Below are positions 6,367 through 7,334 of a stretch of 64,000 nt of DNA, in pieces. This DNA is from Pachysolen tannophilus NRRL Y-2460 (lineage: Eukaryota). Positions within the stretch are counted from its first letter, which is position 1. Each line of letters opens with the position of its first letter. The translations under genes were made by a program, and so were the position numbers. The notes below the pieces were generated by a model. The model saw nothing but the letters and a program-made list of their open reading frames with translations. It made no database searches and had not been told where the DNA came from. Location of the stretch: assembly GCA_001661245.1 (NCBI GenBank), contig KV454011.1:1838041-1902040 (forward strand), read 5' to 3'.

Positions 6367-6456
6367 CGAGGATATGCTTTCTTACACAACTTTGAATTTT
6401 CTGGAATTAAGTTTCTAGATATCGTGTTCTCAGTTGTTTACTTATCCTCGACAAGT
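6367..6456 (+). ncRNA. SNR44: snR44-like H/ACA snoRNA, 3' hairpin plus ACA box only
   Basis: Lower stem CGAGGATA 6367-6374 / TATCCTCG 6443-6450. Pocket TTCTTACA (6379-6386) + TTTA (6437-6440) is complementary to 25S rRNA UAAA-[U]A-UGUAAGAA (U1056 region, recalled). Upper stem CAACT/AGTTG. ACA at 6451-6453, 14 nt from the pocket top. Confidence 0.85.
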
Positions 6457-6580
6457 TTTTTTTTTTTTTTTTTTTCTTCTTCTGTTGTACAATATCTCCT
6501 ACACCACTACATACACTCAATAGCTTCACCGTACTTTTTTTGTATGTCATGGGCAAATCAACTAACAAAATTCTTTTTAG

Positions 6581-6840
6581 GTTACATTGGTGAATTCGAG
6601 TACATTGATGATCACAGATCAGGTAAAATAGTTATTCAATTGAACGGTAGATTGAACAAGTGTGGTGTCATTTCACCAAGATACAATGTTAAAATTGCAG
6701 ACATTGAAAAATGGACAGATAACTTATTACCTGCAAGACAATTTGGTTTTGTTATTTTAACAACTTCAGCAGGTATTATGGACCATGAAGAAGCAAGAAG
6801 AAAACATGTTTCAGGTAAAATTCTCGGGTTTGTCTACTAA
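6581..6840 (+). CDS. RPS22: 40S ribosomal protein S22 (uS8), coding exon 2, on the strand opposite exon 1
   Basis: (G)[33 protein letters not shown]...KILGFVY*; preceded by branch AACTAAC (6560-6566) and 3'ss TTTTTAG (ends 6580); no in-frame uS8 N-terminus upstream on plus. Confidence 0.95.
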
Positions 6841-7046
6841 ATAAATAAATAAAATAAAATAAAATAAAAATAAAAAATTGTGTATTGATAAAGAAAACAA
6901 AGATATTTTGCTAATAGAAGTGTAGTATGACGATTGTGACAGCCACCATATATACCTCCTTTGGTAACTTGAACTAACAATTTACGCCTTTTTCTTTCTT
7001 CTCTTTTAAATCTTTCAAGTCCATAAAGAATCTTTGCCACTATTTT

Positions 7047-7115
7047 TATTCTTCCTGAAACTTAAAAGACAGCATGGGACTGCTATCCGATCAGACCATC
7101 CAGTTATCATTCAGG
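7047..7115 (-). ncRNA. SNR44: snR44-like H/ACA snoRNA, 5' hairpin plus H box only
   Basis: Minus strand reads CCTGAA-TGATAACT-[upper stem]-TTTAA-GTTTCAGG-A-AGAATA. The pocket pairs with 18S rRNA UUAAA-[U]C-AGUUAUC (U106 region, recalled). H box ANANNA at 7052-7047 is 14 nt from the pocket top. Confidence 0.85.
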
Positions 7116-7201
7116 TTTTAAAAAACAAAAAAAAAACAGCACACATACACTCCAAGCTTCAGATTCTGGACTCCAGACTCTATAAAGATTTAAATACATA
7201 C

Positions 7202-7334
7202 CATGTTTCTGCATTACCGATAAGAACTTGATAATAACTTTTGATGAAGGTCTAATCAAGACTTGACGTTTTCCTGTCTTTTCTGCATTGTTAATGGCAT
7301 TTAAAGCATCTGCTAAAGCTGAAGTTCTAGTCAT
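7202..7334 (-). CDS. RPS22: 40S ribosomal protein S22 (uS8), coding exon 1
   Basis: [45 protein letters not shown]; 133 nt followed by 5'ss GTATGT (7201-7196). 133+260 nt = 393 nt = 130 aa + stop, joined in phase (CAT G|GT TAC). Confidence 0.95.

Follow-up and report, generated by a model that had tools for sequence, protein, structure and literature searches.

An RPS22B-type uS8 gene and its intronic snoRNA snR44, both split over the two strands of one locus in Pachysolen tannophilus, and a single small inversion as their probable common cause

How can a ribosomal protein gene be distributed over both strands of one locus and yet be flawless in each of its parts? This question is raised by the uS8 gene in the 64,000-nt stretch of Pachysolen tannophilus DNA analysed here (the window), which contains no N and has a G+C content of 29.7%. 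The locus is an RPS22B-type uS8 gene, split over both strands. The earlier note on this DNA had placed exon 1, followed by a GTATGT donor, on the minus strand and exon 2, behind an AACTAAC branch point and a TAG acceptor, on the plus strand, which is confirmed on both strands; the parts of the gene are the following.

7761-7756, minus strand: GTACGT, candidate donor of the 5'UTR intron of the uS8 gene, a role assigned tentatively
7372-7338, minus strand: end of the 5'UTR intron, with TACTAAC at 7372-7366, a T-run and TAG at 7340-7338, 3 nt before the ATG
7334-7202, minus strand: uS8 coding exon 1, 133 nt, residues 1-44 plus 1 nt, with the ATG at 7334-7332
7201-7196, minus strand: GTATGT, 5' splice site of the coding intron, read from the sequence
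6560-6566 and 6574-6580, plus strand: branch point AACTAAC and 3' splice site TTTTTAG (TAG at 6578-6580), read from the sequence
6581-6840, plus strand: uS8 coding exon 2, 260 nt, residues 45-130 and the stop codon TAA at 6838-6840

The two coding exons are convergent on opposite strands and are not collinear on either. Joined by script, they give 393 nt which, as had been claimed before, read in phase as a uS8 of 130 aa followed by a stop and which encode a complete Ribosomal_S8 domain. The corresponding Pfam profile PF00410 is matched at positions 2-38 by the exon 1 peptide (E 9.6e-06) and at positions 41-126 by the exon 2 peptide (E 1.6e-10), the latter being 92-95% identical to yeast uS8. 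Neither exon contains a CTG codon, so that the reading is unchanged under the non-standard code of table 26, and every minority residue of the protein is also present in other loci, the rarest being Ala6 (1 of 63 loci). A search for another uS8 by tblastn with both exon peptides, a check that the earlier note had proposed for the genome and that was applied here to the window, found no further copy of either exon in the whole 64 kb, the next-best matches having E values of at least 0.13. Among the Pfam hits to the 125 open reading frames of at least 70 aa, S8 is the sole family split across strands, and the arrangement of its exons on opposite strands is far above chance.

The remaining genes of the window cover their Pfam profiles, except for a split in a GH72 glucanosyltransferase (Gas1-like) gene at 3327-4689 on the plus strand. 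This gene consists of two overlapping open reading frames in different frames of the same strand, which match profile positions 28-246 and 241-313 respectively, the first 27 profile positions being in neither; the frame split is most likely an intron.

Exon 1 is without an obvious cis splice partner on the minus strand, as no branch point with acceptor was found on that strand between its donor and the intron of an aldo-keto reductase gene at 6009. Upstream of exon 1, a scan of the minus strand from 8860 to 7335 for GTA[ACT]G[TA] gave a single site, the GTACGT at 7761-7756. Two further motifs on the plus strand, a GTATGT at 6542-6547, which is 12 nt upstream of the AACTAAC branch point and too near for an intron, and a second AACTAAC at 6972-6978 within the former 3' flank of the uS8 gene, are probably due to chance in AT-rich sequence.

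The existing annotation mirrors this arrangement. The annotated P0242 (103 aa, window about 7015-7860, minus strand) is composed of an upstream piece, exon 1, a read-through into the intron and part of the snoRNA snR44, and the exon 1 peptide has 100% identity with the N-terminal part of P0242. The form of this model shows that the annotators had not located an exon 2 in cis. The 'hypothetical protein' P0242 is no real protein, and it should be replaced, whichever orientation of the locus is true.

How the gene is organized in relatives was addressed with 80 metagenomic loci retrieved with the exon 2 peptide, a comparison likewise proposed earlier. In 76 of these loci exon 1 precedes exon 2 on a common strand, and in none is it located only on the opposite strand; the other four (L019, L024, L030 and L063) show no exon 1, their exon 2 match beginning at most 258 nt from the contig end. 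All 76 loci with both exons have the coding interruption at the same residue, after residue 44, as does Saccharomyces cerevisiae RPS22B, to the intron position of which the earlier note had drawn attention. The exon matches abut, that is, without intron, in 16 of the 76 and are 83 to about 500 nt apart in the other 60. Eleven yeast loci were scanned for snR44: seven have neither intron nor snR44, while the four with an intron (L007-L010) all carry a whole snR44 on the strand of the gene (74-87 bits), the 3' hairpin of which displays two conserved strands and the ACA box. Among the metagenome loci, L025 (1150 nt) carries several incomplete uS8 copies, located on both strands and with the members of each pair collinear, and looks like a repeat or an assembly tangle from an unrelated GC-rich fungus.

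In S. cerevisiae RPS22B, the first intron is located in the 5'UTR and the coding intron hosts the H/ACA snoRNA snR44 (PMC5291244). The P. tannophilus locus shares with this gene a 5'UTR intron ending immediately ahead of the ATG and an snR44-bearing coding intron (PMC5291244), and, as in L007-L010, snR44 begins about 80 nt past the donor. In contrast to RPS22B, the distal part is on the other strand here, and one transcript yields neither the mRNA nor the snoRNA. The ancestral arrangement, as the comparison of these sequences shows it, would have comprised the 5'UTR intron, exon 1, the snR44-hosting coding intron and exon 2, all on one strand.

What had been missed by the earlier note is that the same break also splits the intronic snR44, the halves of which are located as follows.

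7117-7047, minus strand: 5' half of snR44, with the 5' hairpin including its pseudouridylation pocket and the H box AGAATA at 7052-7047 (Rfam RF01262 and alignment)
6367-6456, plus strand: 3' half of snR44, with the 3' hairpin (lower stem 6367-6374 pairing with 6443-6450) and the ACA box at 6451-6453 (cmscan, alignment and fold)

On the minus strand the Rfam model RF01262 (snR44) matches 7117-7010 with 55.8 bits, starting 84 nt past the donor, and the 3' hairpin of the model is nearly all deleted in this match. With the stretch cut at 6362, cmscan recovers 6362-6456 of the plus strand as model positions 123-211, truncated at the 5' end, with a score of 20.9 bits (E 0.014), which is below the gathering score of 33, as is expected of a half. 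This 3' half is positioned directly upstream of the T-run, the branch point and exon 2 on the plus strand; it folds with -24.6 kcal/mol (z -3.86, none of 200 shuffles being equally stable), and the ACA follows an 8-bp lower stem. Both halves align with the snR44 of the relatives in L007-L010, the 3' half with the 3' hairpin and the ACA, and, of the columns invariant in these four, the 5' half keeps 44 of 50 and the 3' half 27 of 31. The conserved pocket and box sequences are present, while the contiguity of hairpin, H box, hairpin and ACA on one strand is lost. The minus strand past the H box (7046-6925) was considered as the source of a substitute 3' hairpin, which was rejected, with z -0.21 and 79 of 200 shuffles equally stable. 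Accumulation of H/ACA RNAs in yeast requires both hairpins and both boxes. As an intact contrast to snR44, the window holds a whole H/ACA snoRNA, snR10 (Rfam RF01258, 164.4 bits), between protein-coding genes at 58950-59221 on the minus strand; a tRNA scan gave no match.

Judged from these alignments, one inversion of about 680 nt (about 6367-7042) would account for the split gene and the split snoRNA alike. The proposal that an inversion of roughly 0.7 kb broke the intron is thereby supported, at about 0.68 kb relative to the arrangement in the relatives. Because snR44 is also split, the breakpoints of the inversion could be narrowed: the junctions suggested before, at 6220-6366 and 6850-7046, were right in location and too wide, and the intervals and their surroundings now read as follows.

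6345-6366, no strand: left breakpoint interval; homology to snR44 begins at about 6367, and the sequence upstream is intergenic, in front of the aldo-keto reductase gene
7030-7046, no strand: right breakpoint interval; homology to the snR44 of the relatives stops after the H box and linker
6841-7042, plus strand: probable former 3' flank of the uS8 gene, comprising 3'UTR and terminator region, judged from its place between the stop codon and the right breakpoint
5056-6083, minus strand: aldo-keto reductase gene (Pfam PF00248, profile 2-290 of 291), the upstream region of which now faces the inverted segment

The right break coincides with the hinge of snR44, just past the H box, and the left break lies, in the original orientation, about 200 nt downstream of the uS8 stop codon. 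The inverted segment carries the 3' hairpin and ACA of snR44, the branch point, the 3' splice site, exon 2 and the 3' flank. When the segment of about 6367-7042 is re-inverted by script, snR44 regains the canonical fold of hairpin, H box, hairpin and ACA and aligns end to end with the snR44 of the four relatives, and the coding intron measures about 373 nt, as calculated from the coordinates, compared with 258, 333, 397 and 398 nt in the relatives. An alternative inversion from the T-run at 6456-6475 to the A-run at 7120-7137 was rejected, as it would set the 5' half of snR44 antisense to exon 1. The reductase gene next to the left break has an apparent 11-nt first exon (6083-6073, ATG at 6083-6081) with a GTAAGT donor, a TACTAAT at 6009 and an acceptor about 22 nt further on.

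No inverted repeat was detected at the two junctions, the best local alignment between them having a score of 19, which is equalled by 249 of 1278 control windows; a likeness of inverted-repeat type that is visible by eye at the breakpoints was rejected on the same grounds, as not above chance. Repeats flanking the inversion were not found either, the repeat listing showing only low-complexity A/T inverted arms, and no transposon remnant was seen there. Local inversions of sub-kilobase to few-kilobase size are a common rearrangement between yeast species. Unlike the usual inversions in yeast gene order, which flip whole genes, the breakpoints here cut a gene and a snoRNA.

What the undamaged exons mean can be judged from the snoRNA. 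The earlier note had read the undegenerated exons as a sign of function and had favoured a joining of the two pre-mRNAs in trans. Trans-splicing ligates exons, not intron halves, and cannot rebuild a two-hairpin H/ACA RNA. The intact exons are no evidence of continued function, because the halves of snR44 are equally intact and yet beyond repair by trans-splicing. The structural half of that interpretation, the inversion, stands, while the argument from intact exons for joining in trans falls and the functional half is weakened. The split snoRNA serves as an internal clock, since its unrescuable part tests whether intact exons mean selection, and the equal intactness of exons and snoRNA halves implies that the event is either very recent or an artefact. 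Two alternatives that the earlier note had itself named, a mis-assembly and a recent disabling inversion backed up by another copy, are now the leading readings.

That the minus-strand pre-mRNA with exon 1 and the plus-strand pre-mRNA with exon 2 are joined in trans as the uS8 mRNA of the cell appears, against this background, very improbable. In its favour, one unit has a consensus donor and the other, in the correct phase, a branch point with an acceptor; the same holds for the minus strand downstream of the donor, which lacks a branch point with acceptor until the reductase intron at 6009. There is also precedent in Caenorhabditis elegans eri-6/7, where an inverted part, eri-6, is repaired by infrequent trans-splicing mediated by flanking direct repeats derived from transposon ends (10.1101/2024.01.15.575659). 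As in eri-6/7, an inversion has put the exons of one gene on opposite strands of one locus, and function would depend on the joining of two pre-mRNAs (10.1101/2024.01.15.575659). In eri-6/7 the trans-spliced mRNA is documented; unlike there, neither flanking direct repeats nor a transposon remnant are present at the uS8 locus. The low frequency of trans-splicing reported there counts against the proposal as well. A ribosomal protein, in addition, requires a very high output, and exon 2 would depend on a foreign promoter from the region upstream of the reductase gene. Promoters are not illuminated by the Tbf1-type CCCTAA sites, of which the window has 11 compared with 20.6 expected and the region 5171-9084 none, a count that is uninformative in this respect.

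In Giardia, the halves of trans-spliced introns pair extensively, and the spliceosome is reduced and unusual. One Giardia study gives 5 of 11 introns as trans-spliced (PMC6679479). The uS8 locus resembles such split introns in that the donor half and the half with branch point and acceptor of one spliceosomal intron are encoded apart (PMC6679479). In contrast to Giardia, the pairing of the two intron halves does not exceed that of shuffles: their duplex has -61.8 kcal/mol versus a shuffle mean of -52.8 (sd 5.5), 7 of 100 shuffles being as low, and the longest exact word common to the halves, the only one of its kind, measures 10 nt. Compared with the class of trans-spliced genes as a whole (eri-6/7, Giardia and mod(mdg4)), the locus has donor and acceptor units that fit in phase and lacks both complementarity and flanking direct repeats. 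Budding yeasts are not known for splicing of this kind: among the papers listed by a literature search, none reports, judged by title and abstract, genic nuclear trans-splicing in Saccharomycotina, and none on trans-splicing in Pachysolen appeared. Antisense overlap in the former 3' flank could hold the two convergent transcripts together, and the full version of this proposal, a real and fixed inversion in a genome with no other uS8 gene, with uS8 mRNA arising by trans-splicing of such antisense-tethered convergent pre-mRNAs, has only a very slim chance of being correct. If true, no natural case of genic trans-splicing in a budding yeast would precede it; the gene concerned would be an essential one for a ribosomal protein, and snR44 would be either lost or used in two pieces. 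Against it stands that the split snR44 is beyond such repair and nevertheless as intact as the exons, the intactness of which is no sign of selection after the inversion.

Whether the genome encodes a second uS8 bears on all readings. Neither protein search shows one of this organism in its 120 best rows, the collection being clustered at 90% identity, where a cluster such as P0008 could hide one; this result favours both a joining in trans and an error of assembly and counts against a disabling inversion. The main text of a proteomics study of P. tannophilus (PMC4937558) contains neither ribosomal proteins nor RNA-seq. The ribosomal protein genes of yeasts without a genome duplication are mostly single-copy, and, if uS8 is single-copy here, the cells could not survive a disabling inversion. 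Some other budding yeasts do have two copies: the intronless L056 and L010, with its snR44 intron, come from one assembly and have like coverage and GC, L003 and L008 likewise, and Brettanomyces and Yarrowia have two uS8 entries each.

An assembly error, with the gene and the snoRNA whole and collinear in the cells and a segment of about 680 nt misoriented by the assembler or in a finishing step, is a distinctly possible, if on balance doubtful, explanation. It accounts without further assumptions for an essential, highly expressed gene and a snoRNA which are broken and flawless in every part, it agrees with an annotators' model at this place that is only the 103-aa nonsense P0242, and local inversions are a known class of error in draft assemblies. 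On the other hand, the window has no N, there is no inverted repeat at the junctions that would make the orientation ambiguous, chimeric support would be required at both junctions, and the other genes of the window look whole. In five sequencing runs from two studies, 0.91-0.92 of 516 sampled words of 4500-9500 are present, shares that do not address the words at the junctions. If an assembly error is the cause, the reference annotation is without correct uS8 and snR44 models at this locus and needs fixing.

Coexisting orientations, by polymorphism or heterozygosity in the culture or by a flipping segment, with the broken form assembled and an intact form sustaining the cells, would explain how the essential gene can be intact and the inverted form real at the same time, and would leave all parts undecayed, as they are. 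This is quite improbable, though less so than splicing in trans, as the junctions have no inverted repeats for repeated flipping and the Pfam hits to the window include nothing that resembles a recombinase.

The reading that we tentatively prefer, at somewhat less than an even chance, is a real, very recent and disabling inversion, with uS8 supplied from elsewhere; other explanations take up the remainder. A single segment of about 680 nt would have been inverted very recently in the sequenced strain, with its ends joined without homology, and the uS8 copy at this locus and snR44 would both have been disabled at once. A second uS8 gene elsewhere in the genome would supply uS8, and the exons and splice signals would be intact because they are too young for decay. 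The presence of the inversion in the cells, its recency and the second uS8 gene are what we infer. Yeast populations seldom show small inversions that lack flanking repeats, which counts against such a disabling inversion. Given a real inversion and a second uS8 gene, the locus would present a datable, repeat-free inversion that killed a ribosomal protein paralogue and an intronic snoRNA together, and, if snR44 is lost, loss of the two rRNA pseudouridines guided by it is predicted.

Next to the split locus, the malic enzyme gene at 8862-10784 on the plus strand (P0121) is annotated with Ala at two CTG codons and is otherwise identical to the standard translation, in line with a CUG-Ala code; for the same reason, four large open reading frames of the window in standard translation have no exact counterpart in the protein collection. 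A second malic enzyme, P0122, has 80% identity to P0121 over 93% of the query and is probably a paralogue on the same 2.5-Mb contig.
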